A stretch of 61,884 nt of DNA, filler included, from Planctomycetota bacterium (GTDB lineage Bacteria; Planctomycetota; Planctomycetia; JALXBF01), in NCBI GenBank assembly GCA_026991575.1. It is 5 parts of 5 records of this genome, joined end to end, with 100 filler letters (N's around TTAATTAATTAA, not from the genome) between each part and the next. Parts side by side here need not be neighbours in the genome. Positions count along the whole stretch, not along the records: positions 17,619 to 34,871 come from JALXBF010000108.1; 4 more parts are not named here. The stretch is one strand, 5' to 3'. Positions 5,233 through 34,971 of this stretch are shown in pieces. The translations under genes were made by a program, and so were the position numbers. The notes under the pieces were generated by a model, which had not been told where the DNA came from, did no database searches, and saw only the letters and a list, made by a program, of their open reading frames with translations. Positions within the stretch are counted from its first letter, which is position 1. Every line of letters begins with the position of its first letter.

Positions 5233-5243
5233 CGAATGGACTA

Positions 5244-5371: not shown

Positions 5372-5381
5372 GTAGCCTTCT

Positions 5382-8653: not shown

Positions 8654-8656
8654 GCG

Positions 8657-17518: not shown

Positions 17519-17618
17519 NNNNNNNNNNNNNNNNNNNNNNNNNNNNNNNNNNNNNNNNNNNNTTAATTAATTAANNNNNNNNNNNNNNNNNNNNNNNNNN
17601 NNNNNNNNNNNNNNNNNN
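17519..17618. other. Artificial contig linker
   Basis: 100 nt of N with a central TTAATTAATTAA (stops in all six frames). Confidence 0.99.
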
Positions 17619-17829
17619 TACGGCAGCGGCCACCAGGCCTCCCAACCTGCCTGCTTGCCACTCCATCTGACTACTATCGGCCCAAAAACGTTCCCACTCC
17701 ACACACCAACCACCACCTCCCAGCCCCCACCAGCTGCCTGCGGCCCCTTCCTAATCAAGCGGGCCAGCGGCCGGCACCCCCGGTCACCAGGCTGCCCACT
17801 GGGCAAGGCAGCACAAGTCGCCACCCCCG

Positions 17830-19362
17830 CTAGCGGCGTGTGTTGGCCGCGGCAGCATTGATCGCGGCGGCAAACCGCGCCAACAACGCCTCGCCCGACC
17901 TGCCTTCTAGCATCCGCCTCAGCCGATCCTGCTGCGTCACCAACTCAACCAGCGAACGCAACTCGCGGCTCGAGCGACCACGCCCTAACGCCTCCAATAA
18001 CAGGTAGCCGACCAGCCTAGCTCGCAAGTACTCCATGCCACCGGTCAACAACGTCCGCACGTCCTGCGGTGAGACCGGCAGCTCCTCGGCGGCCAGACTC
18101 TGCAAGGACAGCACGTAGTGTGAGCCGCGTGCTAACCGAGCGGCAAGCTTCAACGCCACGGCCCCCCGCAGCCATGCCGGACAACCCTCAAAGGCCCGCA
18201 TCATGTACGCGTCCGCAATCGCCTGCGCCACGGCTACCACCGCGTCCACCTGTTCCGTCTCGCTCGGCACGTACAACGCCGCATACGGCAGCTCGACCGC
18301 GGGCCGGAAGTGGCCGTAGACCAGCCCGGGCATCTCGCGCCGCTCCACCATCCGGGTGTGCTCCAGGTAGTAGTACCTGCTGTTGTACACGAACACGGTC
18401 AGCTTCCCGCGCCACAGCTCCGCCGACTTGCGCCGGAACCACGCCTGCAGCGCCCTCAGCGCCCCTTCAGCCTGCTTCAGGACCTGCCTCAACGTCCCCG
18501 GGGGAACGTTTCCGTATGCCCTGAAATGAGCTGACTCGGCCACAACCGGCTCCTGGCCGGGCACGGTCATCTGCCAGTAGCGGCGGGCGACCCGATCGTA
18601 GTAGTCTGCAAGCTCCGCAGCACTGAGCCCCGCCAGTTTGCGCCGCAGCCTCTCTTCCTCGGACGGTACCAACTCCGTCAGCGTCGTGTCCGGGCTGTAG
18701 TTTGGAGCTCCGTCAAAGCGGGCGCCCTCCTTGATCCAGGTCTCGAACAGCTTGACCAGGTCCGGGCGGAGAGCTCGGTTCGGCGGCATACGCGGTTCCT
18801 CCTTGCCCTGCAGCAGCAACACCAACAGGCTCTCCTCCGGTTTGCCAGGTACGATGTCATCACCACGATCACCTCCCTGGAGCAGCCTGTTGTACGTCTC
18901 CACGCTGAAGCCGCTGCGTGGTCTGTTGCCGCTGTGGCACCGCACGCAGTTACGCTGTAGTAGCGGTGCGATGTCACGCACAAAACTGACTGTGCCCCTC
19001 GGTGGCTTGGCCTCAGACGCTTCGGTCGACGGCGCTGTCCCCGCCCCTGCACCCAACTGCATGGCATAGCGTTCCCGCATTCGCTCGACGTAGCTCAGTG
19101 CAGCACGTGCCCGCCGCTTAAGTACCGGGCTGACCTTTTCGGCCGCCAACACATCACGGGCAAGCTTCTCGAGATGGTTCAGCGCTTCGGCGGCCACAGT
19201 GTACTGGCGCTTCTGCAGCGCGTGGGCTGCCTGCCGCTGCGCACGCTGCAACTCCGCTGCGCTTGGGGGTTTGTCCGCCAAGGCAGACGCGGAGCAGAAA
19301 TAGAGCAATGCACACGGGACGATGAGCGGCGCAGTCACTCGCAACATGGTAGCCAGGCGCAT
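17830..19362 (-). CDS. Secreted planctomycete cytochrome c domain protein with degenerate peptidase-like C-terminal domain
   Basis: Signal peptide; VSFVRDIAPLLQRNCVRCH...IVPGKPEESLL...MPP...WIKEGA; GGGAG before ATG 19362. Confidence 0.8.
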   Translation of the reverse strand: MRLATMLRVTAPLIVPCALLYFCSASALADKPPSAAELQRAQRQAAHALQKRQYTVAAEALNHLEKLARDVLAAEKVSPVLKRRARAALSYVERMRERYAMQLGAGAGTAPSTEASEAKPPRGTVSFVRDIAPLLQRNCVRCHSGNRPRSGFSVETYNRLLQGGDRGDDIVPGKPEESLLVLLLQGKEEPRMPPNRALRPDLVKLFETWIKEGARFDGAPNYSPDTTLTELVPSEEERLRRKLAGLSAAELADYYDRVARRYWQMTVPGQEPVVAESAHFRAYGNVPPGTLRQVLKQAEGALRALQAWFRRKSAELWRGKLTVFVYNSRYYYLEHTRMVERREMPGLVYGHFRPAVELPYAALYVPSETEQVDAVVAVAQAIADAYMMRAFEGCPAWLRGAVALKLAARLARGSHYVLSLQSLAAEELPVSPQDVRTLLTGGMEYLRARLVGYLLLEALGRGRSSRELRSLVELVTQQDRLRRMLEGRSGEALLARFAAAINAAAANTRR

Positions 19363-19524
19363 AATCACTCCCGCGACAAGACCGGGCAGGGGCTTCCGTA
19401 GAGCCACAACCCCGCAACGCACTTTGGGCAAGTTGATTGGCCTCCGCCGGTTGTGACAGCCTCCCGGCGCGACCGTGCCCTCGCCGGCGGAGAGCTTCGG
19501 GCCGGTCCAACGTCCGCGGCCTGC

Positions 19525-20880
19525 CTAGCCGACACCGGCGAAATGGCCTTTCAAGGGTAGTTCATCGCCCCAGCCGTCCGCAATACGGAGAAGTTCGTTG
19601 TACTTGGCCAAGCGTTCGGAGCGGGTCACCGAGCCGATTTTGATCTGACCGGCTCCGGTGCCTACGGCCAGGTGAGCGATCGTGATATCCTCGGTCTCGC
19701 CACTACGAGCCGACACGACGCAATGATAGCCCGCTTGGCGGGCGACGGCCATAACCTCCAGCGTCTCGCTCAACGTGCCCACCTGGTTCGGCTTGATCAG
19801 CACCGTATTGGCAATCCCCGCCTCGATCGCCTGCCGCAGCCGAGCCAGGTTCGTGACGAAGAGGTCGTCGCCAACGAGCTGCAGGGTCCGTCCGAAGCAC
19901 AGACTGGCTTTGCGCCACCCGTCCCAGTCGTCCTCCGCACAGACGTCTTCCAGAGACATGATCGGAAAATGCGAGGTCCAGGCTCGCAGGACCGACAGGA
20001 ATTCGTCGGCCGTTGCCGGGCCTCCCCCCAGCTCAGCGATCACATAGCCGCCGTCGCGGTAAAAGTGGCTTGCGGCCACGTCCAAAGCGAGCGCAACCTG
20101 GGCACCCGGTTCCAGACCGGCACGTTCGATTGCTTCGGTTACCAGTCCGAGCGCTTCATCGACCGTGTCCACGTTCGGCCCAAAGCCACCTTCGTCCGCG
20201 ACCAATGCCCACGTGAGCCCACGTTCGCGCAACAGTTCGCGGAGCCGACGGTAGATCCGCACCGCCCAGGACAGACACTCGCGGACGCTCCGAGCCGCCC
20301 ACGGCACGATCATGATGTCCTGTATTTCCATCTGTTGGCCTGCGTGCAGTCCCCCGGAGATCATGTTGATCATCGGCACTGGCAACACGGGCTCACCCCA
20401 CGACGGCGGCGCCTGGCCGTCTGTGTCTGGCGGTGTAGCACGCTGGCACGCAGCCTGCCACAGTTGGGCGATGTGCCGGAAAAGAGGGCAGCGCTGAGCC
20501 TGGGCAGCAGCATGGGCACAGGCAAGCGAAACGGGCAGGATGGCGTTTGCCCCGAGCCGCTGCTTATTGGGGGTTCCATCGAGCTCGCACAGAAGTCGGT
20601 CGATCGTGAACTGGTCGGTTACGTTCAGCCCTGCTAAAGCCGGCCCGATGACTTCGTGCACGGCCTGGACCGCAACCGTTACGCCGTCGCCGTCGAACCA
20701 GTCGCGGTCCCCATCCCGCCGCTCAACGGCCTCGTGCCGCCCGGTACTTGCACCGGATGGAGCAATCGCTCTGCCCCAGGCAGCTCCGTGCGTTGCCTGG
20801 CAGTGCACTTCGACCTCGACCGTGGGCCTGCCTCGGCTATCGAGCACTTCGCGCGCGTGGACGGTTTCGATGCGAGCCAT
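19525..20880 (-). CDS. eno: Enolase (divergent)
   Basis: AREVLDSRGRPTVEV, APSGASTG, DEGGF, VGDDLFVTN, LIKPNQVGT, QIKIGS, RSERLAKYN. Confidence 0.92.
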   Translation of the reverse strand: MARIETVHAREVLDSRGRPTVEVEVHCQATHGAAWGRAIAPSGASTGRHEAVERRDGDRDWFDGDGVTVAVQAVHEVIGPALAGLNVTDQFTIDRLLCELDGTPNKQRLGANAILPVSLACAHAAAQAQRCPLFRHIAQLWQAACQRATPPDTDGQAPPSWGEPVLPVPMINMISGGLHAGQQMEIQDIMIVPWAARSVRECLSWAVRIYRRLRELLRERGLTWALVADEGGFGPNVDTVDEALGLVTEAIERAGLEPGAQVALALDVAASHFYRDGGYVIAELGGGPATADEFLSVLRAWTSHFPIMSLEDVCAEDDWDGWRKASLCFGRTLQLVGDDLFVTNLARLRQAIEAGIANTVLIKPNQVGTLSETLEVMAVARQAGYHCVVSARSGETEDITIAHLAVGTGAGQIKIGSVTRSERLAKYNELLRIADGWGDELPLKGHFAGVG

Positions 20881-20891
20881 CGCGGCAACGC

Positions 20892-22217
20892 TCACAACTC
20901 TGCGGTGTAGACGGGCCGAGCGGTCGGCACGGGAAACTGCTGGCACAGCTCGTGGACTTCGCCGCGGACGCGCGTCAGCGTCGCTTCGTCGTCTGGCCTG
21001 GCCAGCACCTCACAGATCCACCGGCCGATCCGCTTCATTTCGTCGGCCTTCATGCCACGGGTGGTCACGGCAGGTGTGCCGATGCGAATGCCGGATGGGT
21101 CCAGCGGCTTGCGACTGTCGAAGGGGATCATGTTCTTGTTGACGGTGATGCCTGCCCGGTCCAGAGCTTGCTCGGCAATCTTGCCGGTCAGGCCGCGGGA
21201 GGTTACGTCGACGCACATCAAGTGATTGTCCGTGCCGCCGGTCACCAGGCGGAAGCCACCACGAGCAAGCTCCTCGGCTAGCGTGCGAGCGTTTTCGACC
21301 ACTTGACGCGCATAGTCGGCAAACTCCGGCTGGAGCGCCTCCCGGAAACAGACCGCTTTGGCCGCGATCACGTGCATCAGTGGCCCCCCCTGGCTGCCGG
21401 GGAACACGGCCGCATCCAGCCGGCGGGCCAGCCAGCGTGCCCGCTTCTCAGGGGCAAGCTCGGGAGCAAACACGTCCGCCAACTCATCCGCCAATGCCTT
21501 ACGGCAGAGCACAAAGCCGGCACGCGGCCCACGCAACGTCTTGTGCGTCGTCGAGCTCACAAAGTCAGCGTACGGCACCGGGCTCGGATGAACCCCGCCG
21601 GCGACCAGTCCGGCAAAATGGGCCATGTCCACAAGCAGGAGTGCCTTGACCGAACGGGCTATCTCCGCAAAGCGTGCGAAGTCGAGCACGCGGGGGTATG
21701 AGCTATGGCCTGCGACGATCAGCTTCGGCCGATGCTCGCGCGCCAGCCGGGCCAATTCGTCGTAATCGATCCGCTCGTCCTGCTGCGAAACGCCATACGA
21801 GACGACGTTGTACAGCTTGCCCGAAGCGTTGACCGGTGATCCGTGGCTGAGGTGTCCGCCGTGGGCTAGATTCATCGCAAGGATCGTGTCGCCCGGTTTG
21901 AGCACGGCGAGGTACACGGCCAGGTTAGCCTGCGTGCCCGAGTGTGGCTGCACGTTGGCGTGCTCGGCACCGAAGAGCTGCTTGGCCCGCTCGATCGCCA
22001 ACCGCTCCACTTGATCCACCCACTCGCAGCCCCCGTAGTATCGCCGCCCAGGGTAGCCTTCTGCGTACTTGTTCGTCAGCACGGAACCCATGGCCGCCAA
22101 GACCGCCGGGCTGGTGTAGTTCTCCGAGGCGATCAACTCGAGCGTGTCCCGTTGGCGGGTCGCCTCGCCGAGCATCGCCTGCCACAGTTCCGGGTCGAAC
22201 GATTCAAGCGGGTTCAT
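20892..22217 (-). CDS. glyA: Serine hydroxymethyltransferase
   Basis: [41 protein letters not shown]. Confidence 0.97.
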
Positions 22218-22377
22218 CAGCAACTCTCCACCTCTACTGGAAAGACGCCGTCTCTAAAGTCTAGATGACCGGGCAGGTACCGAACCGGCCACCAGGCCGG
22301 CCGCCCGCGCATGCATCAGGTCGTGACGCGGTAGAATCGCTAGGAGTTCTGCGTAACGATGCCGAGGAGGCAAGGCC

Positions 22378-22851
22378 ATGAGCGGTGCGGAAGCAGGCAG
22401 GCGGCCCAAGATCCTGATCGCCGACGATAATGTCCAGAACGTCGAGCTGCTGGAGGTCTATCTCGAGGAGCTGGACGCCGAGGTTGTCAAGGCGTACGAC
22501 GGCGAGGAGACCCTGGACGTAATCGAGAAGGAAAAACCCGACCTGGTGTTGCTCGACATCATGATGCCGAAGATCTCCGGCTACGAGATCTGCCGGAAGC
22601 TGAAAGAGAATCCCGCTACGCGCACGCTTCCGATCCTCATGGTCACCGCGTTGAACGAAAGCAGCGACGTGGAACGGGCCGTCCAAGCCGGCGCTGATGA
22701 CTTCGTCTCCAAGCCCATCCACAAGGACGATCTGCTCCATCGCGTGCGCGCGCTGCTGAAGATCCGCGACCGAGCCGACGACCTGGAACGGACTCTCGAG
22801 TACATCAGCGAAATCGACCGCCGCCCGGAAAACCCGGCCCAAGGCAGCTAG
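22378..22851 (+). CDS. Single-domain response regulator with C-terminal extension
   Basis: ILIADD, LLDIMMP, MVTA, FVSKP. Confidence 0.9.
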   Translation: MSGAEAGRRPKILIADDNVQNVELLEVYLEELDAEVVKAYDGEETLDVIEKEKPDLVLLDIMMPKISGYEICRKLKENPATRTLPILMVTALNESSDVERAVQAGADDFVSKPIHKDDLLHRVRALLKIRDRADDLERTLEYISEIDRRPENPAQGS

Positions 22852-22886
22852 CCTTACCGGCCATCCAACGCCGCGGGGACATTAGC

Positions 22887-24695
22887 ATGGATCTGGCAGG
22901 CACCGCGCTACGTCGGCCATTGCCGAGCCTGTCATACGTGCTGCTGATACCTTTGCTCTGGCTGACCACTTCGCTTGCCGCCGATTCGCCTGGGCGCGAG
23001 GCTCGGCCCAACATTCTCCTGATCGTCACTGATGACCAGGGCTGGGGCGACCTGAGCAGTCATGGGAACCCGTACGTGCAGACGCCAGTCCTGGACGGCC
23101 TTCGCCGTGCCGGCGCAACGCTCGAGCGGTTCTTTGTTCAGCCGGTCTGCGCTCCGACGCGAGCCGAACTGCTCACGGGACGCTACTACCTGCGAACCGG
23201 CGTCCACGGCGTCACCCGCGGCTATGAACGGATGCGGGCAAGCGAAGTGACGCTGGCCGAAGTGCTGCAGGCACACGGCTACGCCACCGGCTGCTTTGGC
23301 AAGTGGCACAACGGTGCCCAGTACCCGCATCACCCGAACGGGCAAGGGTTCGATGAATTCGTTGGTTTCTGCGGCGGGCACCTGAACAACTACTTCAGCC
23401 CGCTTCTGGAACACAACGGTGTACTCATTCGAGCCGACGGCTACGTTGCGGACGCACTTACCGATCACGCCATCGCCTTCATCCGCCAAAACCGTGACCG
23501 GCCCTTCTTCTGCTACCTGCCGTACAACACGCCACACAGCCCGTTCCAGGTGCCGGACCGCTTCTTCGGACGCTACCGTCAGCTCGGACTCGACCCAACC
23601 CTCGCTACCATTTACGCCATGTGCGCCAATCTTGATGCCAATATCGGGCGACTGTTGCAGACGCTGCGCGACCTTGGGCTGGAGCGGCGGACGCTGGTCA
23701 TCTTTCTCAGCGACAACGGACCCAACACGCGGCGGTACAACGGCGGCATGCTTGGCCGGAAGGGAAGCGTTGACGAGGGCGGGGTGCGTGTGCCCTGCTT
23801 CATGGCATGGCCCGGCGTGATTCGCCCGGGCACGATCGTCCGCAGGATTGCCTCTGCGATTGACGTCATGCCCACGGTCCTGGACTTTGCAGGCATTGAT
23901 CCTCCTGCCGGAGTACGACTTGACGGTCTCAGCTTGCGGCCTCTGCTGGAAGGAACCGCGCGGCACTGGCCCGACCGGTTCCTCTTCCAGCACTGGTCCG
24001 GCGCACGCGTCCGCCCAGATCGAGGTGCAGTACGGACGGAGCGCTACCGCGCCGTGTTTCGACGCGGTCGCTGGCAGCTGTACGACCTGGTGCAGGATCC
24101 GTCGCAGACCATCGATCTGGCCGAGACCAAGCCGGATCTGCTGCGCAGGCTGCGCGAGGCGTACCGCGAGTGGTTTCACGACGTGACAACGAAGGGGTTT
24201 GACCCGATTCCGGTGCACCTTGGCCATCCCGGATGGGACACGGTTCATCTGCCGGCGCATGAGGCAACGTTAGAGCCGGCCGGCAGAGGCATCCGATACG
24301 TCATGCGACAAGGGTGGGCGAACGACTGGATCGCGGAATGGACCGATACCAACGCCTATGCCTGGTGGCCGGTGCGAGTTGTCCGAGGCGGGACGTACGA
24401 GTTCGCGCTGCAGTACGCTTGCTCAGCCGACGACGTCGGAGCGAAGCTTGCAGTGCGTGTGGGCGAGAAAGAGATCACGGCGAGGTTAACGCGGCCATTT
24501 GAGGCCCGCCGTGTACCGAGTCCCGACCGCGTCCCGCGCAGGGAGGTGTATGAGCGCGTCTGGGGACAATGGACCGTCGGACAACTCCGCCTGGAACCAG
24601 GCACCTATCGGCTCGAGCTCCGTGCCTTGCATATTCCGGGCCGCAGCGTCGGTGAGATCAAGGCGGTGATCGTGCGTCGGGTCGAGCTCCCGTAG
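22887..24695 (+). CDS. Formylglycine-dependent (S1) arylsulfatase with C-terminal beta-sandwich domain
   Basis: Signal peptide, PNILLIVTDDQG, CAPTRAELLTG, GKWH, SDNG. Confidence 0.93.
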   Translation: MDLAGTALRRPLPSLSYVLLIPLLWLTTSLAADSPGREARPNILLIVTDDQGWGDLSSHGNPYVQTPVLDGLRRAGATLERFFVQPVCAPTRAELLTGRYYLRTGVHGVTRGYERMRASEVTLAEVLQAHGYATGCFGKWHNGAQYPHHPNGQGFDEFVGFCGGHLNNYFSPLLEHNGVLIRADGYVADALTDHAIAFIRQNRDRPFFCYLPYNTPHSPFQVPDRFFGRYRQLGLDPTLATIYAMCANLDANIGRLLQTLRDLGLERRTLVIFLSDNGPNTRRYNGGMLGRKGSVDEGGVRVPCFMAWPGVIRPGTIVRRIASAIDVMPTVLDFAGIDPPAGVRLDGLSLRPLLEGTARHWPDRFLFQHWSGARVRPDRGAVRTERYRAVFRRGRWQLYDLVQDPSQTIDLAETKPDLLRRLREAYREWFHDVTTKGFDPIPVHLGHPGWDTVHLPAHEATLEPAGRGIRYVMRQGWANDWIAEWTDTNAYAWWPVRVVRGGTYEFALQYACSADDVGAKLAVRVGEKEITARLTRPFEARRVPSPDRVPRREVYERVWGQWTVGQLRLEPGTYRLELRALHIPGRSVGEIKAVIVRRVELP

Positions 24696-25148
24696 ACGGT
24701 GGTACCCCCCCGGCTGGGTTAGCCTTTACGCCCGGTCCAGTCACCTGATTCTGGACTGTGTCCTGGTGACGCCCCGGAGACCCTGGCATGGTGCGCATCT
24801 CAGTACCGGCCGCATCCATCGGTCGGCTCTCGTCACAGCGCGCACTTCTTGTTGGGAGTCAGCTTGCGGGGTGGGGTTGGCCGAGCTGGCAGGCCGCCCC
24901 CCGAGAACTGAGCTCAGCGTGCCCGAGGAGCCCGCTGACCGCCGCTGTCCCGGCAGTGGCACGACGCTGACCGCGGCGCAGGTCCGACCCAAGTTCATTG
25001 AGGCGACGGACAGCGTCAGGCCGGCGGCATGGCCCGTGGATCGCACCACCGCGGCAGGAGAACGGCTGCAATGCTGCGGTCCTGTAGGTGGCCGCAAGAG
25101 CCCCCGGGCGGGTGCCGTCGAACTCGGCTTCACTTGAACGCGCGGCAC

Positions 25149-25991
25149 TTACCGTGGACCCGGTTCGGCTGAGGTGTTGCCGAAGCGCTCCAGCTGCTGT
25201 TGGAGTGCTCGGGGTGAAGGTGCGTTCTCGGGCAGACGCGGCGCGAATGGCCCCGTAAGCGGGGGTTCTTGGTGTTTCACTGCGGTCTTGCCCGCGACAT
25301 TGGTGCCGGACACGGGCCGGGCGCCCCGTGCCGTTGGCCCAAGCCCGAAGCGTACCTGCCAACCGCCCGGTTCAGGCGGTGGCACGCAGTCGAGGTTATG
25401 AACCAGGACGGACGGCTGTCCCCCAATGGCCAGATAGTACGTGTGTGCCACTTCGACCACCAGGTTGTAAACATCCACCCCTTCCGGCCGCTCGATTCGC
25501 TCGTTCAAGGTCACCACGTAAATTGCCCTGCCCGGTGCTTCCAGAATCGTTCCGGGTCGCAACTCAGCTGCCGGAACCCAGCGGTGTGCTTTTGTCCAGA
25601 ACGGGTGATCGTCCGTCGTGTAGATCTCCACACTTCGGTGCCCCCGCTCTGACTGCAGCTTCAGCCGGCGGAGATGCTGCACGCGACGTCGCGTGACCGC
25701 CTTGACGCGCGCTACGATCTCTCGTTCCTGCCGCGGGTCATAAGCAAGGACCCGGTCACCGGGAACCACTTGCTCGATCGGCTTGACCTTGATTGCCACC
25801 TTTGGCGCTGGCCGGTCCGGCTTAGGCTGCGCCCGTTGCCTCGGCGCGGTCCGACTCGTTAGCCCACGGATGACAAGAAACGCCAGGAGGATCACAAGGT
25901 AGACGCCCCACGGGGCGCTACCGTACCCACCACCCTCCGCCGGTTCCCACAGCCATCGCCACCAGCCAGGTCGCCTTCGTTTCGATCCCAT
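25149..25991 (-). CDS. Membrane-anchored protein carrying the C-terminal bulk of a polymorphic-toxin-type Hint domain plus an 81-aa tail
   Basis: GGAGA before ATG 25991; KRRR then TM WGVYLVILLAFLVI; PIEQVVPGDRVLAYD, TTDDHPFW, WVPAAELRPG, VYNLVVEVAHTYY, VLVHN; no block-A Cys. Confidence 0.8.
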   Translation of the reverse strand: MGSKRRRPGWWRWLWEPAEGGGYGSAPWGVYLVILLAFLVIRGLTSRTAPRQRAQPKPDRPAPKVAIKVKPIEQVVPGDRVLAYDPRQEREIVARVKAVTRRRVQHLRRLKLQSERGHRSVEIYTTDDHPFWTKAHRWVPAAELRPGTILEAPGRAIYVVTLNERIERPEGVDVYNLVVEVAHTYYLAIGGQPSVLVHNLDCVPPPEPGGWQVRFGLGPTARGARPVSGTNVAGKTAVKHQEPPLTGPFAPRLPENAPSPRALQQQLERFGNTSAEPGPR

Positions 25992-26593
25992 GCCATGATC
26001 TCCGCCGCGGTGTACCCATCGTGCCGGACAGTTGACTTTCCGCGTGAAGAAGGTCCGGGCCCCCCAGACCACCCGAGGGCCGATTCCCGCAACCAAGGCA
26101 CGCCTCGACATTGGGGGGCCTCGAACCAGTCCTGGGCTCATTCTCCAAGTGAACCTCCTCTTGGCGGTCACCACACCCTGTAGCGCATCGCGTGCCGAAA
26201 ACGTTGGGGACTCGTCCCCCGGGGCAATGGCCGTAACGTCCGTCTGGGAAACTGGTTGCGCGTCGGTGACACTCCCGGTCGTTGCTGCCACTTCCAAGCT
26301 ACGTACCCGGACCTGTCGCGCGACCGGACAACGCTGTCACTATGGCGGACAGCCGTCGTGCACTTCGAGCTTGCTCTCTGACGCGTTGAAGCATCACCCG
26401 CTGGTCCGTCTTCCGATGGCATACTCATCGAGGCACCACGCGTGGGGGGCTCGACCCGGGTAGCGACTCAATACGCGTGACCGTCCCGGGTCACACGCTT
26501 TCGGCCGATCAGCCGGAGCTGAGGCTCTGCCCGATCGGGGCAACAGGGCGTGTGGGCCGGTTGGGACTGTCGCCAATCGAGGGGGGATCTGGG

Positions 26594-29500
26594 CTAATGA
26601 CGGGTACCCGATTGCGGGCGGTGGCGTGGCTGGATCCGCCGCATGCTGCGGCGTACGCGGTCGCGGTTGCCACGGCGCAACAGCCACAGCGGCAAGCCAG
26701 CGACCGCCACATCGGCCAACCACGCCAGAATGCGGGAGAGGGCAGTTGCGCCTGCGGTGCGGTCCACGGTGCCGGTTTGGAAACCGGGCAGCGTTGACGG
26801 CAACGCTAGCGACAGTTGAGCTTCGCGGTCGTGGCTGTCAGGGGAGGTGTCTGTCTCTACCACGACCACTGGTGTTCCCGCTACGAAACAGGCCGGCTCA
26901 CCGGGTGCAGGACGGCCATCCGGGCGCTGAGTGCCCGGGCTTCCGCCGTCGTCCGACGCTGTGGCCGTCCATTCCTGGATTGCTGAGATCGTACCCATGC
27001 CCTGAGCAATTGCCCTACCCACGCCAGGCACGAATTCCCGCGCCGAGCGCGCAATGAGGTCTACGGCGGCTCCGTGCATATCGCCATGCACGATGGTGAC
27101 AGCAAAGTGCACCGCTCCGCCCAGTGTGCCCACATACCCGGGCACGAGCGCCGCCAGTGACGTGATGCGCTGCACGTCGGCAAGCGCCTGATCCTTTGCC
27201 TTATCCAGCGCCTCCAGCCACGCATCGGGCCGCCGTTGAGCCTCTTCGTCGCGTGCTGCGAGGAGCTGTCGGCGACTTGCGTCGTGATCAAGCTGTTCGG
27301 CTTGCGCCGCAGCCAGCGACCGCGATACGAAGCGATCCAATGCCGCGACTGCCTCCTTCCGGCGCGTGCGGTTTCGATCGAGCTCGGTAGCTACTGCCTT
27401 TCTGGCGGCGTCGGCTTCGTCCAGCAACTGCTGCAGCGCCGCGTCGCGCAGCGTTCGAGCGTGCCGAACGGCATCGGCGGCCGCCCGCCGCCGTGCTGCC
27501 GCCGCATCGTAGGCGGCCGTCCGCCGACGCTTTCCTTCAAGTACAGCCGCCTCGCGGGCTGCCGCCACGCGCCGGGCAACCTCACTGCGCCACCGGCGTA
27601 CCTCGTTGGAAAACGCATCGACCTCTCGCCGGAACGCATCCCGAAGCGCGAATGCTTGTTGCTGCTCTTGAAGCAGGCTACGGCGCAGGGCCAGAAGTGC
27701 CTCGTCGACCAGCTGTGGCCGTGGCGGAGGCGCTTCGGCGGCGAGTTGCTCATCGAACGGTACGACCTGTCCAATCCGCGGCGCGAATAGATCTGCTTCG
27801 ATAGCACCACCAGCTCTCAGTTCGCCGATCGCTTCGGCCGCCACCAGCACGCCACCAAGGTTGCCTCGTGCGCGCAGGCTTTCGATGTAGCCGCAGGGGT
27901 GCGGCCCGGTGTCGCCGGCGGGTAGAGCTGGCTGATTGTCACACGCGCGCGCACGCAGGTTTGCATCGAGCGAACCGTATGAGCGTACCTCCTGAATGTA
28001 ATCCGCTTGAGCCGCGACAGCCATGTCCCCGACGCTCCAGAGCCGCTCGGCCACGCCCGCATCAACGATCCCGATGGTTGCTTCTGCCCAGGCCTCTGCC
28101 CGGACCCGCTCGGCTGCCACCTGAGCCGCCAACTCACCCCCGGCAACAAGCGTGACCTGGCGGGCAGCTTCTACCGCCGCGTGCAGTGCACCGCCTGCGA
28201 GGGCATCCACAACGAGGGCCTGGTCAACCCGTAGCAGGCCGCGCTGTGCATACCGTGCGACGACTTCCCCGGCTCTGCGCACCACCAGCGCGCCGTCAGT
28301 CAGGGCGGTCAGACGCACCGATGAGTCGGAGGAAACGGCCAGCGAGCCGGGTTCGACGAACAGTCCTATCACGCGGCCGCCGGCGGTAACGTCGGCCACG
28401 CCACCCGCTACGGCCGTGACGGCAACTTCCCCGTTCGCTTCGATGGCTACGTTGTCCAGTGCGCCCCACGTTGACAGCCGCACCTGCCTGCCCGCGGTGA
28501 GTGTGCCGGCCACGTCGCCGACGGTTGCAACCGTCATGTTCCCGGCCACGCGAGCTTCGAGCACCGTGTCACCCAGCACTACGATGTCAGCATCGCCGTA
28601 GGCACGCAACTTCCCTGACAAACCGCCGAAGCCGGCCCTGAGCAGGACGCTTTCGTTTGCTTGCCATGCAAGGGTCAGCGACGATAGAGACGTCGCGGAC
28701 AGTGGCCCGTTAGAGCGGCCGTCCAAGGTGAGCGGGCCGCCAGAGAACACCTCAGCTGCCGCGCCCGACTCGACGCTAACGGTGACCGATTCGGCAAGCG
28801 AAAGCAGCCGGAACGCACCATCGGTGTTGACTTGCAAATGGCCCCCTGCAGCAGTCCAGGCCGACACGTCTCTTGCGCGGATCTCAAGCGAGACAGGTTC
28901 CAGGGCGCGGACGTCGACCGTGCCGTCAGCTTCGATCCGACCGGTGATAGTGGAAGCGGTTGCCGCAAGCACATTGCCGCCTGCAGCCAGTTGCAGTGCC
29001 GCTGGCCCGTCGCTGAGCACCGTGGCGTTTCCGTCTGTAGCCAGTGTGCCCCTCAATGCGTTACCAGTGGCCACGTGTATGGGTCCCCCCGAGTGGAGCC
29101 GGCCCACAAAGCTGCCCATCGCTCGGACATCCAGAACCCCGCCTGATGACAGCTCACCGCGAACATCCCCACCGGCCCGTATCGTCAGGGTCGCAGCTGT
29201 CCGGTACGTGCCAAGCACGTCGCTCAGCGAGACCACCTCCATCGCGTGCGGTGAGCGGAACTGCCCGTGCACGGCGCCGGCGGCATAAACGGCAAGGGCA
29301 TCTCCGGCCGCCACATCGCCGAGCACCGATCCGGCTGCAGCAACCAGTGCACTCCCACCCACGGTCAGCTCACCACGAATTGTTCCACCGGCTGTGACCA
29401 GCGCGTCCCCCTCCGCCCGCCACGTGCCGGCTGCGTCAGAGAGCGTCTCCAGGGTCAGCCACCGGGAACTGTCGACGTCGGCAGCCACTGGGCCGTTTGT

Positions 29501-32500
29501 GCGGAGCGTGACCGGTTGTCCAATCAGTTGACCCGAGATGCCATTCGCCGTCACAACCAGTAGCGCCCCGCTACTGGTGGCCACGCCATCAAAGGCACCG
29601 TCGGCGGCGGTTACCGTCAGCGGACCGCCGCTGAAGAGGTTACCGGCGACGCCGTCGGCAGCATGCAGCTGCAGTGTCCCGCCAGAACGGAATTCTCCGA
29701 CCGCGTCACCACCAGAGGCGATCTCCAGCGTTCTGCCTGCCAAGTACGTGCCGGTGACCGAACCGTGGGCAAGGATTCGCAACGAGCCGGTAACCGCAGC
29801 ACGCCCTGCCACGGTGCTCAATGCATCGATCAGTCCGTCGGCGGCTTCTAGGTCAAGGAGGACGGAGCCTGCGGCGATGACTTCCACCGCAGCTGGGCTT
29901 GTTACCTCGAGCTGTAGGTCTCCCCATGAGCGGGCGTTGACCGAACTGCCGGCGGTGGCACTCATTGCCAGTGGGCCGTACGCGGCCGCGGAGATCGAAC
30001 CGTCTGCGCGCACCTTCGCAGCAAGTGCTCCCCCGGACGCTAGCGTCACGTCGCCTCCCGCCTCAACCGCTGCGTCCAGCTTTTCCAGGGCGCGCATCTG
30101 GACATCGCGCTGAACCGACGCGCTAACGTCAGCCCTGCCGGCTGAGGCCAAAGTCACGCTCTTGGCCGCGTCAATGACGGCCGTGACGTCCGCATAGCCG
30201 TTCACGATCACCCGTCCGCCCGCATGCACGCTCAGGTCGATTGTCCCGGCAGCTGCAGCACGCACTGCATTGCGGGCCGTCACGGCCGCGTCCAGCATCT
30301 GACCACTGACGACGGTCACCGTATCGCCCGCCGAGCTGAACGATCCGCTTATGCCGCCGAGCCCGGTGATCGTTATCGAGCCGTCGGCCTGCAAGTGGCC
30401 GTCCACACGGCCGTAGACGTACAGCGATGCCTGAGGGCTAGCTGTCCCTTCGGCACCAGCTTCCTCTGGTCCCACACTGGTGGCAACCAGCGAACCCGTC
30501 CAGGAACCCCCCACCACCGCGTGCACGTCGCCGGTGGTCTGGACCGTTGCCGTGAGGTCCCCGTGCACTTCCGCATCGAGCGGCCCGAGAATGCGCCAGT
30601 CCCCGGTGGCCTCGCCCCAGACCTCCAGCCTCGCTCCGGCCCCGACACGGAGTGTTGCCGACAAGTCTTCGTGGACGACGGCGACCAGTGACGAGTCGGT
30701 CGTGACCGAACCAAGTAAGCTACCGACATCAAGAACGACCGGCCCGGCAGCCGTCACCGTTGCGGTGAGCGGCCCGGATGTGTCCAGCTGGGTTGGGCCG
30801 GCTGTATTCTGGACCTTGCCGGCCAGAAAGCCGTGCACGTAACCGCGGAGTTCGCCTGCGGCCTGAAAGAGCCCGCTCGCCGAATCGAAGATTTCGAACG
30901 AGAGCGTGCCGTAGCTCCTCAAGCTCCCCGTGTGCGAACCAGCTTCATAGATAACCTCCTCACCGGCGGCAACGTCGAGCCGTGCTTGGCCGAGCACGTA
31001 CACCTCGGCGGTCGTTGCCGCGGCGATCGACCCGCTGGCCTGCGCCCATGATGTCGCTCGGACCCGCTGACCGTGTGCCTGCCAGCGGGCATCACCCCAA
31101 CTGTACAGGTAAATGGTTCCATCAGGAGCAGCCAGGTCCACAGATAGCGACTCATGCGCGACGAAGATCGACTCTCCCTTGCCGGACACTTCGCCGGAAG
31201 CAACCAGCTGCTCGTAGGCCACTGCCTGCACGCTGCCGCCGGTGAACAGCTCCATCGCAGCCGACGCAAACCATGTGGCTGTGACGTTGCCAAGAGCTGT
31301 CACGACCATCGTGGCGTCGTACCACGACCACGCTCGGACATCGCCCCGAGCGTTCGCGCTCAAACGAAGCGATGCCCAGGACCCGGCGTCCAGCAGAGCA
31401 CCGACCTGACGAACGTTCAGTTCAAGATTGCCGAAGGCTGTCACGTCCGCAGTCCCGTTCGTTGCCAGCTCCACGACTGCGTCCCCCCATGCATCTACCG
31501 CGACCGGTTGGTCGGAGCTCAGTTCCAGCTGCGCCTGCATATCCCCCCCTGCATACAGCCACTGCAACGCCTCGGCCTGAATCGTGCCCGACAGGTTGCC
31601 CGCGGCGAGCAAATACTGCACCGGCCCCGACGCATTCAGTGTGATGGAGGCGTTGCCAAGGTGACCGCGGGCTGGTCGAACCGGACGCACGGGCTTGACC
31701 AGTTGGACAGAGTTTCGAACCAGAGCGGACTGCGGAAGCGTGCTGTCTGTGGCCTCCTCAACGGTGGTAAACCGGCGATCTGGCGGAAGTTCGTCCCAGA
31801 CCACAATGGAGCCTACAGGCCCGCCGACGGTGAGCCAACCGCTTAGCGACCCTCCACCACTTGTGCCAACTAGCAGCTCGCCGAGCCCACCGCCGACGTC
31901 GGCTCCAACGGTGGCGTCAGCTCCGGCCACGATGGCGTCGATTCTCCCGGAGACCTCAGCCTCAAGCGTCAGCGATCCGCCCTGGGCATGGACTCGGGCA
32001 ACGTTACCGGCTACCCGGATGCTCGCGTCCAGGTCCCCGCCGCTTCGAACGGCAGCGACGTCCCCTGCGGAACGTAGCTCCAGCGTCAGGCTCCCCTGGC
32101 TAACGACCTCGCCCAGGCCACCGCCGACGTCAAGAGTTACCGTGGACCGGTCGAAAGAGCTCCCGCCCACGGCAAGCTTGTTCGCCGTTCCGGAAACGCG
32201 GATCGTGCCTGTGAATGCCGTGTCGATCCGGATCGCGCCGGCTGAACCGTCCACCTGTACCATGGCCGTGCTGGTTTCGGGTTGAGCGGCCGATCCGCGA
32301 AACACCTGTAGCGACTTTAGGTCCCCACCCACGTCGATCAGCGCCCCGTCCAGCGTGCCGGCAGCACGCTGTTGCCGGTCGAAGTCCCAACCGACAGTGA
32401 CAGCATCGATGTCAGCACGACTGCGAAGCGTGCCGCCGAGCCGCCTGCCGACTCTTATCTCACCGATCGCCGCCGCGCTCATCGTGCCGGTTGCCGCGTC

Positions 32501-34075
32501 CCGGACGCGTACGGACGTGATGGTTCCCTGCGCGGCAACCCGGCCGACGATGTCCGCTCCGATTGTCAGCTCTACGATGCTTCCGCCTGCGACGACCTGC
32601 CCGGAAAGGGTTCCTGCGATGCTGAGCGTTCCAATGTTCGTACCAACGTCCAGCTCACCGCTTACGTTGCCACCTACCTTCACTGTGACCACGTCGCGCA
32701 GCGACCGGATCTGCCCCGCGAAGTCACCGTCAATGCGGACCGCTGTGGTCGCGCCGCTGGTAATGGTTCCCAGCAGGCTGCCTGCCACCGAGATTTGCTG
32801 GATCAAACTTGTGGTCTCAACCGTAGCGTTCAAGTCGCCGGCAACGGTCAGGTGAGTGATGGCGTCTGCGGACAACGCGCCAAGCAAGTCACCGCCGGCT
32901 TGGACGGCGTTAACGGTCCCGGCCACGTCCAGCGCCAGGGTGAGTTGGCCCGCGGACGCGATCTGGGTCACCGGCCCTCCGATGCTGCCGCTCAAATCGC
33001 CCGAGCCCTTTTGGGCTGTAATGCTTCCCACCGGGCCGCTAATGGCCAGCGTGACGGTGAGCGGGCCGTTGCTTGCCAGTTCGCCGAGCCCGGTGGCCCG
33101 GACCGCGCCGGCATAGCCACCGGCGCGGCTCCGGATCGTTCCGACCGGGCCTGCCGTGAGGACGTCCAGCTGCGCCGCGGCCCCCAGCAAGATCGAATCG
33201 ATTGCTTCCGCTACTTCAATGGTGCCCGCCGCCGTTCCGTCCACGACCAGCTCACCAAGCATGCCGTCCACGGCCAGGCCTGCGCGGAAATCCCCCGTAG
33301 CGCGAACGGTTTCAAGATCGGCTCCCACGGAGATGGTCGTGGCGATGGATCGCGCGGTAATCGGACCTGATGAACCCCCTACGGTGACTGCGGCGGATAG
33401 GTCCGAGCGCACTATAAGCGCGGCCAGATCCCCCCCAATGTTGATGGCACCGGCCTGGCCGGCGGTCACCGGACCCGCGTCCCCACCAACGGTCAGCGAC
33501 GCAAGCCGCTCGGAGACAGCGATCGTTCCGGCGCCCTGGCGGACGTGCACCGCCCCCGCTTCGGTTGCATACAGGCTAACAAGTCGGCCAACCTGGACGG
33601 CGCCAACCGCGTCACCCGCTGACAGCGCGGCTTGGGCAGCTGAGACGGCTTCGATATCTTTTCCAGCAGTTAGGAACGCACTGCCACTGATGCTGACGGG
33701 TCCGATGGAGCCGGTAGCGGTCAACACCAGTTCGGTGGCGTCTCCCTGCCAGAGAGCATCCCCGCGCGCACCCGATCGGCCCGTAACGCTCAGTCGAAAC
33801 CGGTCACCTTCGGCAGGCCACAGCGTGGCTTCGTCCGAGGCGATCTCGACCCACACCGTGCCCGGGCCGTCGTTGGTCACGCACACGGTTGCTTCGGATT
33901 CGCTGGACCGGGGCACGTCGTTCGGGTGGAACGCATCACCGCATAGCGACCATCCTGGTTCGAGCAGAACGCGCGCCAGCAGAAAGCGACTCTCGAGCTG
34001 CTCCAGTCGAAGGGGACGACGTGGCAACCGCGGTCGCCTGCGATGCGGGCGTGAGAAAGTGCTCGGCTTTTTCAT
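26594..34075 (-). CDS. Giant secreted beta-helical protein (2493 aa) with LEPRxLL-type motif, coiled coil, PT-TG-like segment, Hint N-terminal fragment and C-terminal TM
   Basis: RRPLRLEQLESRFLLA; ~2000 aa of Gly/Ala/Val/Thr-rich repeats; ALVPGYVGTLGGAVHFAVTIVHGD; CFVAGTPVVV at residue 2396; ILAWLADVAVAGLPLWLL-RRGNRDRVRR. Confidence 0.85.
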   Translation of the reverse strand: MKKPSTFSRPHRRRPRLPRRPLRLEQLESRFLLARVLLEPGWSLCGDAFHPNDVPRSSESEATVCVTNDGPGTVWVEIASDEATLWPAEGDRFRLSVTGRSGARGDALWQGDATELVLTATGSIGPVSISGSAFLTAGKDIEAVSAAQAALSAGDAVGAVQVGRLVSLYATEAGAVHVRQGAGTIAVSERLASLTVGGDAGPVTAGQAGAINIGGDLAALIVRSDLSAAVTVGGSSGPITARSIATTISVGADLETVRATGDFRAGLAVDGMLGELVVDGTAAGTIEVAEAIDSILLGAAAQLDVLTAGPVGTIRSRAGGYAGAVRATGLGELASNGPLTVTLAISGPVGSITAQKGSGDLSGSIGGPVTQIASAGQLTLALDVAGTVNAVQAGGDLLGALSADAITHLTVAGDLNATVETTSLIQQISVAGSLLGTITSGATTAVRIDGDFAGQIRSLRDVVTVKVGGNVSGELDVGTNIGTLSIAGTLSGQVVAGGSIVELTIGADIVGRVAAQGTITSVRVRDAATGTMSAAAIGEIRVGRRLGGTLRSRADIDAVTVGWDFDRQQRAAGTLDGALIDVGGDLKSLQVFRGSAAQPETSTAMVQVDGSAGAIRIDTAFTGTIRVSGTANKLAVGGSSFDRSTVTLDVGGGLGEVVSQGSLTLELRSAGDVAAVRSGGDLDASIRVAGNVARVHAQGGSLTLEAEVSGRIDAIVAGADATVGADVGGGLGELLVGTSGGGSLSGWLTVGGPVGSIVVWDELPPDRRFTTVEEATDSTLPQSALVRNSVQLVKPVRPVRPARGHLGNASITLNASGPVQYLLAAGNLSGTIQAEALQWLYAGGDMQAQLELSSDQPVAVDAWGDAVVELATNGTADVTAFGNLELNVRQVGALLDAGSWASLRLSANARGDVRAWSWYDATMVVTALGNVTATWFASAAMELFTGGSVQAVAYEQLVASGEVSGKGESIFVAHESLSVDLAAPDGTIYLYSWGDARWQAHGQRVRATSWAQASGSIAAATTAEVYVLGQARLDVAAGEEVIYEAGSHTGSLRSYGTLSFEIFDSASGLFQAAGELRGYVHGFLAGKVQNTAGPTQLDTSGPLTATVTAAGPVVLDVGSLLGSVTTDSSLVAVVHEDLSATLRVGAGARLEVWGEATGDWRILGPLDAEVHGDLTATVQTTGDVHAVVGGSWTGSLVATSVGPEEAGAEGTASPQASLYVYGRVDGHLQADGSITITGLGGISGSFSSAGDTVTVVSGQMLDAAVTARNAVRAAAAGTIDLSVHAGGRVIVNGYADVTAVIDAAKSVTLASAGRADVSASVQRDVQMRALEKLDAAVEAGGDVTLASGGALAAKVRADGSISAAAYGPLAMSATAGSSVNARSWGDLQLEVTSPAAVEVIAAGSVLLDLEAADGLIDALSTVAGRAAVTGSLRILAHGSVTGTYLAGRTLEIASGGDAVGEFRSGGTLQLHAADGVAGNLFSGGPLTVTAADGAFDGVATSSGALLVVTANGISGQLIGQPVTLRTNGPVAADVDSSRWLTLETLSDAAGTWRAEGDALVTAGGTIRGELTVGGSALVAAAGSVLGDVAAGDALAVYAAGAVHGQFRSPHAMEVVSLSDVLGTYRTAATLTIRAGGDVRGELSSGGVLDVRAMGSFVGRLHSGGPIHVATGNALRGTLATDGNATVLSDGPAALQLAAGGNVLAATASTITGRIEADGTVDVRALEPVSLEIRARDVSAWTAAGGHLQVNTDGAFRLLSLAESVTVSVESGAAAEVFSGGPLTLDGRSNGPLSATSLSSLTLAWQANESVLLRAGFGGLSGKLRAYGDADIVVLGDTVLEARVAGNMTVATVGDVAGTLTAGRQVRLSTWGALDNVAIEANGEVAVTAVAGGVADVTAGGRVIGLFVEPGSLAVSSDSSVRLTALTDGALVVRRAGEVVARYAQRGLLRVDQALVVDALAGGALHAAVEAARQVTLVAGGELAAQVAAERVRAEAWAEATIGIVDAGVAERLWSVGDMAVAAQADYIQEVRSYGSLDANLRARACDNQPALPAGDTGPHPCGYIESLRARGNLGGVLVAAEAIGELRAGGAIEADLFAPRIGQVVPFDEQLAAEAPPPRPQLVDEALLALRRSLLQEQQQAFALRDAFRREVDAFSNEVRRWRSEVARRVAAAREAAVLEGKRRRTAAYDAAAARRRAAADAVRHARTLRDAALQQLLDEADAARKAVATELDRNRTRRKEAVAALDRFVSRSLAAAQAEQLDHDASRRQLLAARDEEAQRRPDAWLEALDKAKDQALADVQRITSLAALVPGYVGTLGGAVHFAVTIVHGDMHGAAVDLIARSAREFVPGVGRAIAQGMGTISAIQEWTATASDDGGSPGTQRPDGRPAPGEPACFVAGTPVVVVETDTSPDSHDREAQLSLALPSTLPGFQTGTVDRTAGATALSRILAWLADVAVAGLPLWLLRRGNRDRVRRSMRRIQPRHRPQSGTRH

Positions 34076-34405
34076 CCCGCGCTTCTCCAGACTGCCTGAA
34101 GCGCGGGAACAGTCGCGGTCGCGTAAGCGTCATTGAAATTCTTACGCCTTGTCCACGCTCCCGGCAAGCCCCCCCGCCTGCAGGGAACGTCTCAGCTCTT
34201 TACCGCACAGCCGGGAAGCCGTGCCGGTTCGTTGGCGTCGCATCAGCGGTGTAACCATCCACGGTCTGCTACAGCTTAGCGCGGAAGAGCTGGAGCCTAT
34301 CGCTGAAGGGATCTTGGACAACAGGCGCCCGCATGCCACAGCTTAGGAAAACAAGGCCACAGGCGCGGAGGCAGCCAATGAGCCGAGAAGACTGGAAATC
34401 TTCGG

Positions 34406-34871
34406 ATGTCGGCTGTGAGCCATTGCGGACAGTTCGCGGCGGACCTGGCAAGGCCAATTGTGAGGGACGAGGCACGTTGGCTGGTAGCGAACTTGATGGT
34501 CGCGTTTGGCGCGGCCGGTGCCCTTCACGTGACGCGTGCGTTGCGTACGCACGCTCCGTTGGGCCATGAGGAGTTCATGCAGTTGGAGAACCGAGCCTCT
34601 CGTCTGCTCCGTCAGCAGGCAAGTGATCGGGTGCCGGAGCCGCACATCGACCTGGTGATTGATCGTTACAAGAAGCGGGTGCTGAAGCACTTACGTGAGC
34701 AGGTGCTGGTGGCGGTGGATGAGACGGATCTGTCGAAGCCGTGGGCGAGGCGTCTGGAGGGGTTGGGTCGGGTGAAGGATCATAGTGATCCGGCAGGGGT
34801 GCTGCGTCCTGGGTACATGGCAGTGCTGGCAACGGCCGTGGAGCATGGTCGTCTGACGCCGCTGGATCTGG
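34406..34871 (+). mobile_element. IS4-superfamily DDE transposase fragment (truncated at contig end)
   Basis: LENRASR...VLVAVDETDLSKPWARRLEGLGRVKDHS...PGY resembles the first-Asp region of IS4-like transposases; lies at a contig break. Confidence 0.65.
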
Positions 34872-34971
34872 NNNNNNNNNNNNNNNNNNNNNNNNNNNNN
34901 NNNNNNNNNNNNNNNTTAATTAATTAANNNNNNNNNNNNNNNNNNNNNNNNNNNNNNNNNNNNNNNNNNNN
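34872..34971. other. Artificial contig linker
   Basis: N-run with TTAATTAATTAA. Confidence 0.99.

Follow-up and report, generated by a model that had tools for sequence, protein, structure and literature searches.

The window analysed here, a 61,884-nucleotide (nt) stretch of planctomycete DNA (assembly GCA_026991575.1), carries a Hint domain that is divided between two genes. A giant open reading frame (ORF; P0001, hereafter the giant) ends shortly after block A, the first strand of the fold with its catalytic cysteine (Cys1, here Cys2396), and a separate downstream gene (ORF2; P0003) resumes the domain behind a predicted transmembrane (TM) helix and carries it to its terminal His-Asn (Table 1). 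The catalytic residues are intact on both halves, contiguous ancestral forms of the same arrangement occur in relatives, and the split is kept in three taxa. We hold it somewhat probable that the two genes encode a naturally split Hint domain with an inserted membrane hairpin (hairpin-Hint), the halves of which come together again on the outer side of the membrane, where they process the giant at Cys2396. Hint domains are at work in protein splicing, in Hedgehog maturation and in the release of toxins; to our knowledge, their natural splits have so far come from inteins alone, in connection with a life as mobile elements.

The start codon of ORF2 lies 7 nt downstream of a Shine-Dalgarno sequence (GGAGA), and its product reads MGSKRRRPGWW..., a TM helix, a Pro-rich linker, VKPIEQVVPGDRVLAYD, TTDDHPFW (which holds the TxxH motif), VYNLVVEVAHTYY and VHN. 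The Pfam family PT-HINT (PF07591) matches residues 69-199 over profile positions 8-136 of 137 (46.8 bits, cut-off 27.7; E 4.5e-12), and because the match begins at position 8, the missing seven positions are exactly block A. Among aligned Hint bodies, D79, T125, T126, H129, F131, G147, N176, H183, Y185, H198 and N199 are invariant in all 21. The giant comprises, in order, an N-terminal planctomycete-extracellular-like motif (LRLEQLESRFLLA), long beta-helical repeats (Bactofilin-like in Pfam; PF04519, 36.6 bits), a coiled coil, a pre-Hint part, block A, a hydrophobic helix and a tail. In translation its C-terminus runs ...GEPACFVAGTPVVVVETD...ILAWLADVAVAGLPLWLLRRGNRDRVRRSMRRIQPRHRPQSGTRH to the stop: GEPA precedes C2396, a linker of 42 residues separates block A from ILAWLADVAVAGLPLWLL, and RRGNRDRVRRSMRRIQPRHRPQSGTRH then continues to the end. 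The best 19-residue Kyte-Doolittle mean of the giant's helix is 1.64, with an Asp within it, compared with 1.99 for the helix of ORF2. Within its own genome (G000) the block A motif of the giant is the only one (the second of two regular-expression matches lies in a PilT-like ATPase frame), and the only other PT-HINT domain belongs to an ordinary AHH toxin on contig C18.

The spacer between the two genes contains 3, 4 and 3 stops in its three minus-strand frames, the codon-usage score is positive in no frame between ~26620 and ~26300, and Rfam has no match on the spacer's strand. Scans of 24600-26900 and 24600-27200 found no promoter-like sites, terminator-like sites on the plus strand only, and no repeat above 30 nt (direct repeats reach at most 26 nt in 24600-27200); with no promoter, minus-strand terminator or long repeat, nothing points to a mobile element. 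No similarity of the spacer was detected to the loops of contiguous relatives, to the flanks in the related genome G001 (see below) or to the rest of its own genome. An RNA element or intron in the spacer was considered and none was found, the single Rfam match being a chance snoRNA on the other strand (E 0.72).

Sequence reads bear directly on the break. Logan contigs of run X1 (labelled hydrothermal vent metagenome, the probable source sample, which holds the whole stretch) cover 24700-27400 at a depth of 32-41 with 0 differences and 0 indels. A 151-nt piece of run X2 spans the region of the giant's stop codon (26533-26678) with 0 differences, and two pieces of run X3, from another study (26277-26421 and 26441-26588), show 4 substitutions each and no indels. 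An assembly artefact as the cause of the split is ruled out, because the 32-41x contigs and the two other samples are all free of indels. An earlier note on this DNA, made from the sequence alone, had described a Hint domain split between two genes, with stops in every minus-strand frame of the spacer, and had named an assembly error as a way in which this could fail: the translation, the PT-HINT match to ORF2 and block A on the giant bear out the split, its individual readings (Cys2396, the GGAGA Shine-Dalgarno sequence, the ATG at 25991, the stop at 26594, KRRR, TxxH and His-Asn) were all reproduced, the frames are closed as it had said, and mapping across the break disposes of the error.

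Contiguous relatives and the predicted membrane hairpin

ORF2 finds matches in 145 of 401 genomes sampled from the class, and the best loci were read. Uninterrupted giants with PT-HINT are found in G300 (two main genes), G022, G147, G260 and G130, that is, in six main genes of five genomes, and share one order: giant, block A, a short linker (~30 amino acids; aa), a first TM helix (TM1), a basic loop, a second TM helix (TM2), the remainder of the Hint domain, His-Asn and a toxin. Seven contiguous hairpin sequences were measured, namely the six main genes and one orphan copy from G300 that includes block A. The distance from Cys1 to TM1 is 27-39 aa, the loop spans 84-148 aa, and TM2 is followed by TxxH after 79-87 aa (~80 aa from the TM helix to TxxH in ORF2). 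TM1 has a hydropathy of 1.52-2.24 in these relatives; it is followed by a basic cluster in all seven, as is the helix of the window giant, and Arg/Lys clusters flank both helices at the loop ends in 7 of 7. Basic residues mark the cytoplasmic side of a membrane protein (the positive-inside rule), so these clusters would place the loop in the cytoplasm and both parts of the Hint domain on the outward side. In an AlphaFold2 model of G300a, block A has a predicted local distance difference test (pLDDT) score of 96, helices occupy residues 40-57 and 143-161, the loop falls below 50, and the Hint core exceeds 90. We regard a predicted TM hairpin inserted into PT-HINT after the first strand as a feature of the family, the ILAWLADVAVAGLPLWLL helix of the giant as the probable counterpart of TM1, and the window locus as this putative architecture broken inside its loop.

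G300a ends in an AHH nuclease (PF14412, E 9e-16), and the contiguous toxin genes are followed by immunity-like ORFs and arrays of orphan cassettes. G300 and G022 have 1-4 small orphan ORFs, which begin ahead of block A, within TM1 or in the loop; each of these cassettes carries TM2, a Hint body, a different toxin and an immunity-like ORF. Similar cassette arrays occur in G216 and at loci L079/L082.

Two further loci show other forms of interruption. In G179 (L042, G179:C2:1855000-1863500, nt ~4087-5432), the frame of the giant closes within the loop at nt 4422, past block A, TM1 and the basic cluster, and TM2, the Hint body and the toxin continue in another frame from MNRTETAPKGPRFW; this one-frameshift break may reflect an error in sequencing, fresh decay or a split that arose independently. 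In G002, from a sister family (L045, G002:C7:40500-52000), a Ser/Thr/Asn/Gly-rich giant (3597-11045, minus strand) without a recognisable block A ends 4 nt before an ORF (2589-3593, minus strand; start MISRNRIPRASRR) that has a TM helix, a Hint domain lacking block A and a toxin-like tail, and that is followed by a small ORF. This pair appears to be another way of coupling a giant with a truncated TM-Hint protein.

Recurrence of the divided domain

The same division is found in G001, a genome of the same family and another genus. Its giant, on contig C400, has an open frame over 2104 aa with 31% identity to the window giant (query residues 2-317), and stops 67 residues after ...EEPACFVAGTLVAVV, beyond a weak hydrophobic stretch. 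Its ORF2 homologue (42% identity over residues 35-275; PT-HINT 42.8 bits) lies on a different contig, C291, between a divergent DUF1559 gene and a DUF1552 gene, and the halves are thus unlinked; no ORF2 homologue was found downstream of the stop of the giant (L047, G001:C400 1-2572). The DNA downstream of that giant is GC-rich and contains two long tandem-like repeats, seen as repeated peptide strings in several frames.

A third instance comes from proteins in ENA. P0005, the one protein added by an exhaustive HMMER search with the last 210 residues of the giant, has 2347 aa, is 55% identical to the giant and ends 67 residues after SEPACFVAGTPIVVV. P0004, obtained by a word-index search, has 275 aa and 57% identity to ORF2; it begins MAKRSCC..RWLWQPVAGGGYGS, at the same start position as ORF2, and has the same motif after the terminal Asn. 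The two proteins lie on different contigs (24687 and 8421 nt). Past Cys1 the giants continue for 98, 67 and 67 residues (window, G001 and P0005, respectively). Aligned with one another, the three share no invariant run in their last 700 residues longer than EPACFVAGT, and the sequence beyond it diverges. The start of ORF2 is conserved in P0004 and the G001 homologue, and their TM helices have hydropathies of 2.41 and 2.43, respectively. The residue following VHN (+1) is Leu200 in ORF2, Leu in G001 and Val in P0004, and a Cys follows only at +3. The motif WQ[VI]RFGLGPTA.GARPV.G behind His-Asn is common to ORF2 and P0004 and is not kept in G001.

In a tree of 21 Hint bodies, the three ORF2 proteins form one clade (support 100/99) on a branch of length 1.92, which points to one old split. 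That the break has outlasted divergence to 31-57% identity, with catalytic residues retained on either half even where the genes lie apart, speaks for a function rather than for fresh decay.

Further searches define how narrowly this form is distributed. A profile of the pre-Hint part of the giant matches 2 of the 401 class genomes, G000 and G001. A DNA search of 41 genomes returned only short, chance-level matches outside the contig of origin; a scan of metagenome contigs for relatives gave the G001 contig itself and 24 generic PT-HINT loci, and nothing else; a scan of genome contigs gave 59 loci and no new close ORF2 homologue; and a protein search with the giant's C-terminus recovered only the giant itself among 8000 scored candidates. 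No fused form of ORF2 (491-2000 aa) was found at E <=0.001, a search that counts as weak evidence. A regular-expression sorting of 75 Hint cores assigns actinobacterial variants of block A wrongly, and its counts are left out of account here.

Structural model, proposed mechanism and competing explanations

The AlphaFold2 model of ORF2 alone comprises a helix at residues 28-45 and a confident Hint core (pLDDT mostly 80-97). Its closest structure in the PDB by Foldseek is the Clostridium thermocellum bacterial intein-like (BIL) domain 2LWY (E 1.4e-7, 30% identity), followed by Tetrahymena BIL2 (6Y75; E 2.9e-6) and then by inteins. Complementation of the missing strand in cis by the C-terminal tail of ORF2 was also considered; residues 201-254 have pLDDT below 50, so the disordered tail does not fill the vacant beta1 slot, and the proposal is unsupported.

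A complex was modelled from ORF2 residues 55-215 (21-row alignment) and giant residues 2386-2449 (10-row alignment). The ipSAE score is 0.79 (0.80, 0.76 and 0.79 in the runs), with 0.02 for the best control; in calibration, the mark is reached by 116 of 157 solved complexes and by 2 of 215 mismatched pairs. Contacts agree between runs to at least 54%. Residues 9-23 of the giant fragment (PACFVAGTPVVVVET) touch ORF2 at 64-73, 79-82, 123-130 (TTDDHP), 172-177, 185-189 and 197-199 (VHN), a modelled contact region that corresponds to the predicted active site of the Hint domain. Since inteins and split inteins have already been solved, a model that passes in this way shows likeness to them, not binding of this pair.

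From these observations we favour the following course of events. The ancestor would have been a single-polypeptide polymorphic toxin of the hairpin-Hint type. In this lineage the gene may have broken inside the cytoplasmic loop, with loss of the toxin, leaving a passenger that ends in block A, a degenerate TM1 and a basic stub, and a separate gene for a putative type-II membrane protein made of a basic stub, TM2 and the Hint body. Both products would reach the outer face of the cytoplasmic membrane, where the block A strand of the giant would enter the vacant slot of the ORF2 Hint body, as it does in the model, and so set Cys2396 beside TxxH and His-Asn. Cys2396 could then undergo an N-S acyl shift, and hydrolysis or the attack of another nucleophile would detach the ~2395-aa passenger from the membrane-bound complex. 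Given Leu or Val at +1, splicing is not expected and a cleavage-type domain is indicated: most likely, the split Hint domain is of the non-intein, autoprocessing BIL/PT-HINT type and not a splicing element.

Several observations weigh against this reading. The export signal of the giant consists of a sub-threshold match to PF07595 (18.6 bits, cut-off 25.5), and its placement outside the cytoplasm is therefore a prediction. The TM1 equivalents of the three split giants score 1.64, 1.33 and 1.56 and contain Asp or Glu; with TM1 marginal in three taxa and the tails past block A poorly conserved, co-localisation by means of two anchors is doubtful. In the complex model the partner's pLDDT is low (44-45). 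P0004 and P0005 are known as proteins on separate contigs, so their co-occurrence in one genome is assumed, and the split is known in three taxa only, all of one clade. No Pfam family matched the tail of ORF2, which is predicted to be disordered except for a short helix (260-272) and thus offers no toxin. No immunity-like gene was found downstream of ORF2, where the ORF at 24741-25148 matches no Pfam family and scores negatively for codon usage. Finally, as a piece of the pre-Hint region, block A might owe its conservation to something else.

The most direct alternative is that the halves never meet, the products of one ancestral break in which the giant was kept for a surface or adhesin role and ORF2 for an unrelated role or in slow decay. 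The missing toxin, the 81-aa ORF2 tail without a Pfam family and with predicted disorder, a TM1 weakened to 1.33-1.64, giant tails that vary in length (98, 67, 67) and in sequence, the unlinked genes of G001 and the long branch of the split clade (1.92) would all suit such an ancient relic. We nevertheless judge it unlikely: block A is the most conserved stretch of the last 700 residues in giants whose flanks have fallen to 31-55% identity, ORF2 retains all of its catalytic residues and its start codon at 42-57% identity, and, by what is generally held of intein biochemistry, a Hint body without its first strand has no obvious stand-alone activity. That ORF2 acts alone, as a membrane-anchored Hint body that cleaves off its 81-aa tail at the C-terminal Asn or serves in non-catalytic binding, with block A irrelevant, seems to us decidedly improbable. 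Its homologues do stand alone with starts of their own, amid unrelated neighbours in G001, and the motif after His-Asn is conserved between G000 and P0004; however, AlphaFold2 leaves the tail outside the vacant beta1 slot at pLDDT <50, G001 has not kept the tail motif, and the invariant block A on giants that lack a Hint body would go unexplained.

Arrays of displaced toxin cassettes are common in relatives (G300, G022, G216 and L079/L082), and ORF2 might by analogy be such an orphan, held as recombination stock, with the end of the giant as the scar of a past tip exchange. This has little in its favour here, as ORF2 has neither a toxin domain nor a downstream immunity-like gene, the giant has no replaceable Hint body or toxin, no repeat ties the 5' part of ORF2 to the giant (the longest is 26 nt), and the two-part form recurs in three taxa. 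It is scarcely credible that a single polypeptide is made after all, whether the cause is faulty assembly or sequencing, a pseudogene of very recent origin, or recoding of the RNA or by the ribosome across the spacer. The source is a genome of 191 contigs assembled from a metagenome, and a one-frameshift form of the break does exist in G179, but the Logan contigs at 32-41x show no indel and two other samples agree, each frame of the spacer has at least three stops and no Rfam family lies there, and a stop follows block A in three independent assemblies, with the halves on different contigs in G001.

Taken as a whole, the interpretation in the earlier note is partly supported. It had given each half a membrane anchor: the helix of ORF2 qualifies (1.99), and that of the giant is doubtful, being marginal (1.64 with Asp inside; 1.33-1.64 over three taxa). 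The cleavage that it proposed, and with it a two-component proteolytic switch, is inference only. Its placement of both halves on the same face agrees with the basic residues beside both helices, which fit a cytoplasmic loop under the positive-inside rule, and its caveat that the ancestor may have been one polypeptide with a TM-loop-TM insertion was well placed, as this form is contiguous in six main genes of five other genomes. The comparison with inteins fails at the +1 nucleophile, where Leu or Val indicates the BIL/PT-HINT cleavage type. The same break, of the kind that it had proposed to look for in planctomycete genomes, occurs in G001 and in P0005/P0004, and a complex model such as it called for places block A in the Hint fold beside TxxH and His-Asn (ipSAE 0.79). 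Recent pseudogenisation, which it had named as a refutation, is largely excluded by a break shared among three taxa, an invariant block A and a conserved ORF2 start.

We consider a wider proposition to be evenly balanced: that the hairpin-Hint itself anchors a giant secreted toxin until it cuts itself free, and that in one planctomycete clade it came to be shared between two genes. This would be the first naturally split Hint domain other than an intein, with the catalytic body provided in trans by a small membrane protein and the block A tag borne by the end of a 2400-aa surface protein. If true, the two-gene Hint would be a dedicated docking-and-release device, or a sortase-like attachment device if another nucleophile resolves the thioester. 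A conserved split of a cleavage-type Hint would mean that cells have taken up trans-complementation of this fold to process their proteins, and a membrane hairpin running through a Hint domain would be a new coupling of export, anchoring and release for very large planctomycete surface proteins or toxins. The secretion biology of planctomycetes is poorly known. The pair would also offer a ready-made natural tool, consisting of an 11-15-residue tag and a membrane-bound catalytic body.

Relation to known systems, coordinates and setting

In the passages of Zhang et al. (2012; PMC3482391) that were consulted, PT-HINT is the 'releasing peptidase' just before the toxin domain of polymorphic toxins, and the HINT domain is described there as a contiguous peptidase only. 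ORF2 resembles it in scoring above the family cut-off and in the presence of Cys1, TxxH and His-Asn across the two chains, and its relatives are true polymorphic toxins, tipped with AHH nucleases and accompanied by immunity-like ORFs and orphan cassettes. It differs in that the domain is interrupted by the hairpin after block A and, in the split clade, is divided over two genes with no toxin behind it: instead of one chain with the full catalytic set, Cys1 is on the giant and TxxH and His-Asn are on ORF2, and the position directly before a toxin and an immunity gene, found in relatives such as G300a, is not that of ORF2.

BIL domains are Hint folds in variable secreted proteins that lack a +1 nucleophile, so that cleavage rather than splicing is expected. 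The window domain conforms to this pattern, with a fold closest to 2LWY and 6Y75, Cys1, a C-terminal His-Asn and no +1 nucleophile; the solved BILs (2LWY, 6Y75) are, in contrast, single-chain and soluble, and we know of no solved BIL that is split or carries a membrane hairpin.

Atypical split inteins with short N-terminal fragments (IntN) offer the nearest precedent for the division itself: IntN has 25 aa in AceL-TerL and 37 aa in GOS-TerL (PMC11766414). The likeness lies in a Hint fold encoded by two separate genes, a break soon after the first strand, and a small N-terminal piece that fills the cavity of a near-complete body. The TerL-type inteins are soluble mobile elements that join the halves of a phage terminase, for which Cys, Ser or Thr must stand at +1 (PMC11766414). 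The window pair differs in having Leu or Val at +1, unrelated 'exteins', hydrophobic helices on both pieces, and a putative break that falls not within the fold but in a cytoplasmic loop inserted into it. Its flanks are a 2395-aa repeat protein on the N-terminal side and an 81-aa disordered tail without a family on the C-terminal side, and nothing suggests that they are halves of one protein, which they nevertheless might be.

Orphan toxin/immunity cassettes occur downstream of cdiA and rhs genes. The arrays in G300 and G022 are alike in consisting of 5'-truncated cassettes that start in a conserved pre-toxin part, whereas ORF2 has no toxin, immunity gene or full-length upstream tip and is a conserved stand-alone gene; the giant has no Hint body, and shared repeats are at most 26 nt. 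The literature searched, which did not extend to full texts, supplements or subscription journals, gave no account of a TM hairpin within PT-HINT, nor of PT-HINT, BIL or another non-intein Hint domain being split in nature.

Table 1. Features of the divided Hint locus, in window positions.
Feature	Position	Strand	Remarks
Giant ORF	26594-34075	minus	2493 aa, P0001; stop codon 26594-26596; from translation
Hint block A (strand beta1 with catalytic Cys1)	26858-26890	minus	Cys2396-FVAGTPVVVV
Weak hydrophobic helix 'TM1', ILAWLADVAVAGLPLWLL	26678-26731	minus	residues ~2449-2466; Kyte-Doolittle
Arg-rich tail, RRGNRDRVRRSMRRIQPRHRPQSGTRH	26597-26677	minus	putative start of the former cytoplasmic loop
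Spacer	25992-26593	minus	602 nt between the giant and ORF2
ORF2	25149-25991	minus	280 aa, P0003; ATG 25991; stop codon 25149-25151
ORF2 TM helix	25857-25910	minus	residues 28-45; AlphaFold2 helix; probable equivalent of hairpin TM2
Hint body	25395-25787	minus	residues 69-199; PT-HINT profile positions 8-136
TTDDH	25605-25619	minus	T125-H129
Terminal His198-Asn199	25395-25400	minus	end of the Hint body
ORF2 C-terminal tail	25152-25394	minus	81 aa, LDCVPPPEPGGWQVRFGLGPTARGARPVSG...

The window comprises five contigs of the planctomycete-like metagenome-assembled genome G000 (4.96 Mb, 191 contigs, 97.8% complete), joined at 17519-17618, 34872-34971, 40105-40204 and 56993-57092 (paired runs of 44 N). 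Because these are five separate contigs, neighbourhood arguments are valid within 17619-34871 (contig C108) only.

The AHH toxin of the same genome on C18 is represented by its tip (L002, G000:C18:1-1900; 2-754, plus strand), in which PT-HINT is cut by the contig start and is followed by the AHH nuclease (PF14412, E 3.8e-11). Next to it, a DMP19-like ORF (PF14300; 789-1898, plus strand) is likely the immunity gene, and the Hint subtype is unlike that of ORF2. Proteins of ~600-800 aa in which helical repeats make up the N-terminal part and the Hint domain at the C-terminus is uninterrupted (e.g., SCFVAGTPVWTERGPQPIEQLRVGD) are very common across the class (L028, L034, L099 and L127), and G001 carries four of them.

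In the related strain of run X3, represented by low-depth pieces, the non-coding spacer is ~97% identical (4 changes per ~145-nt piece in two pieces; 26277-26588), and a coding piece of the giant (27217-27367) is 92% identical, with 12 of 151 positions changed and 5 of the 7 listed changes at codon position 3. The spacer may be under constraint, although so small a sample cannot carry the point. At 25666-25695, inside the Hint body of ORF2, the Logan assembly of X1 breaks into two contigs with a 30-nt overlap, and a 44-nt side branch at a depth of 7.6 leaves this point, which suggests a minor variant or a k-mer palindrome.

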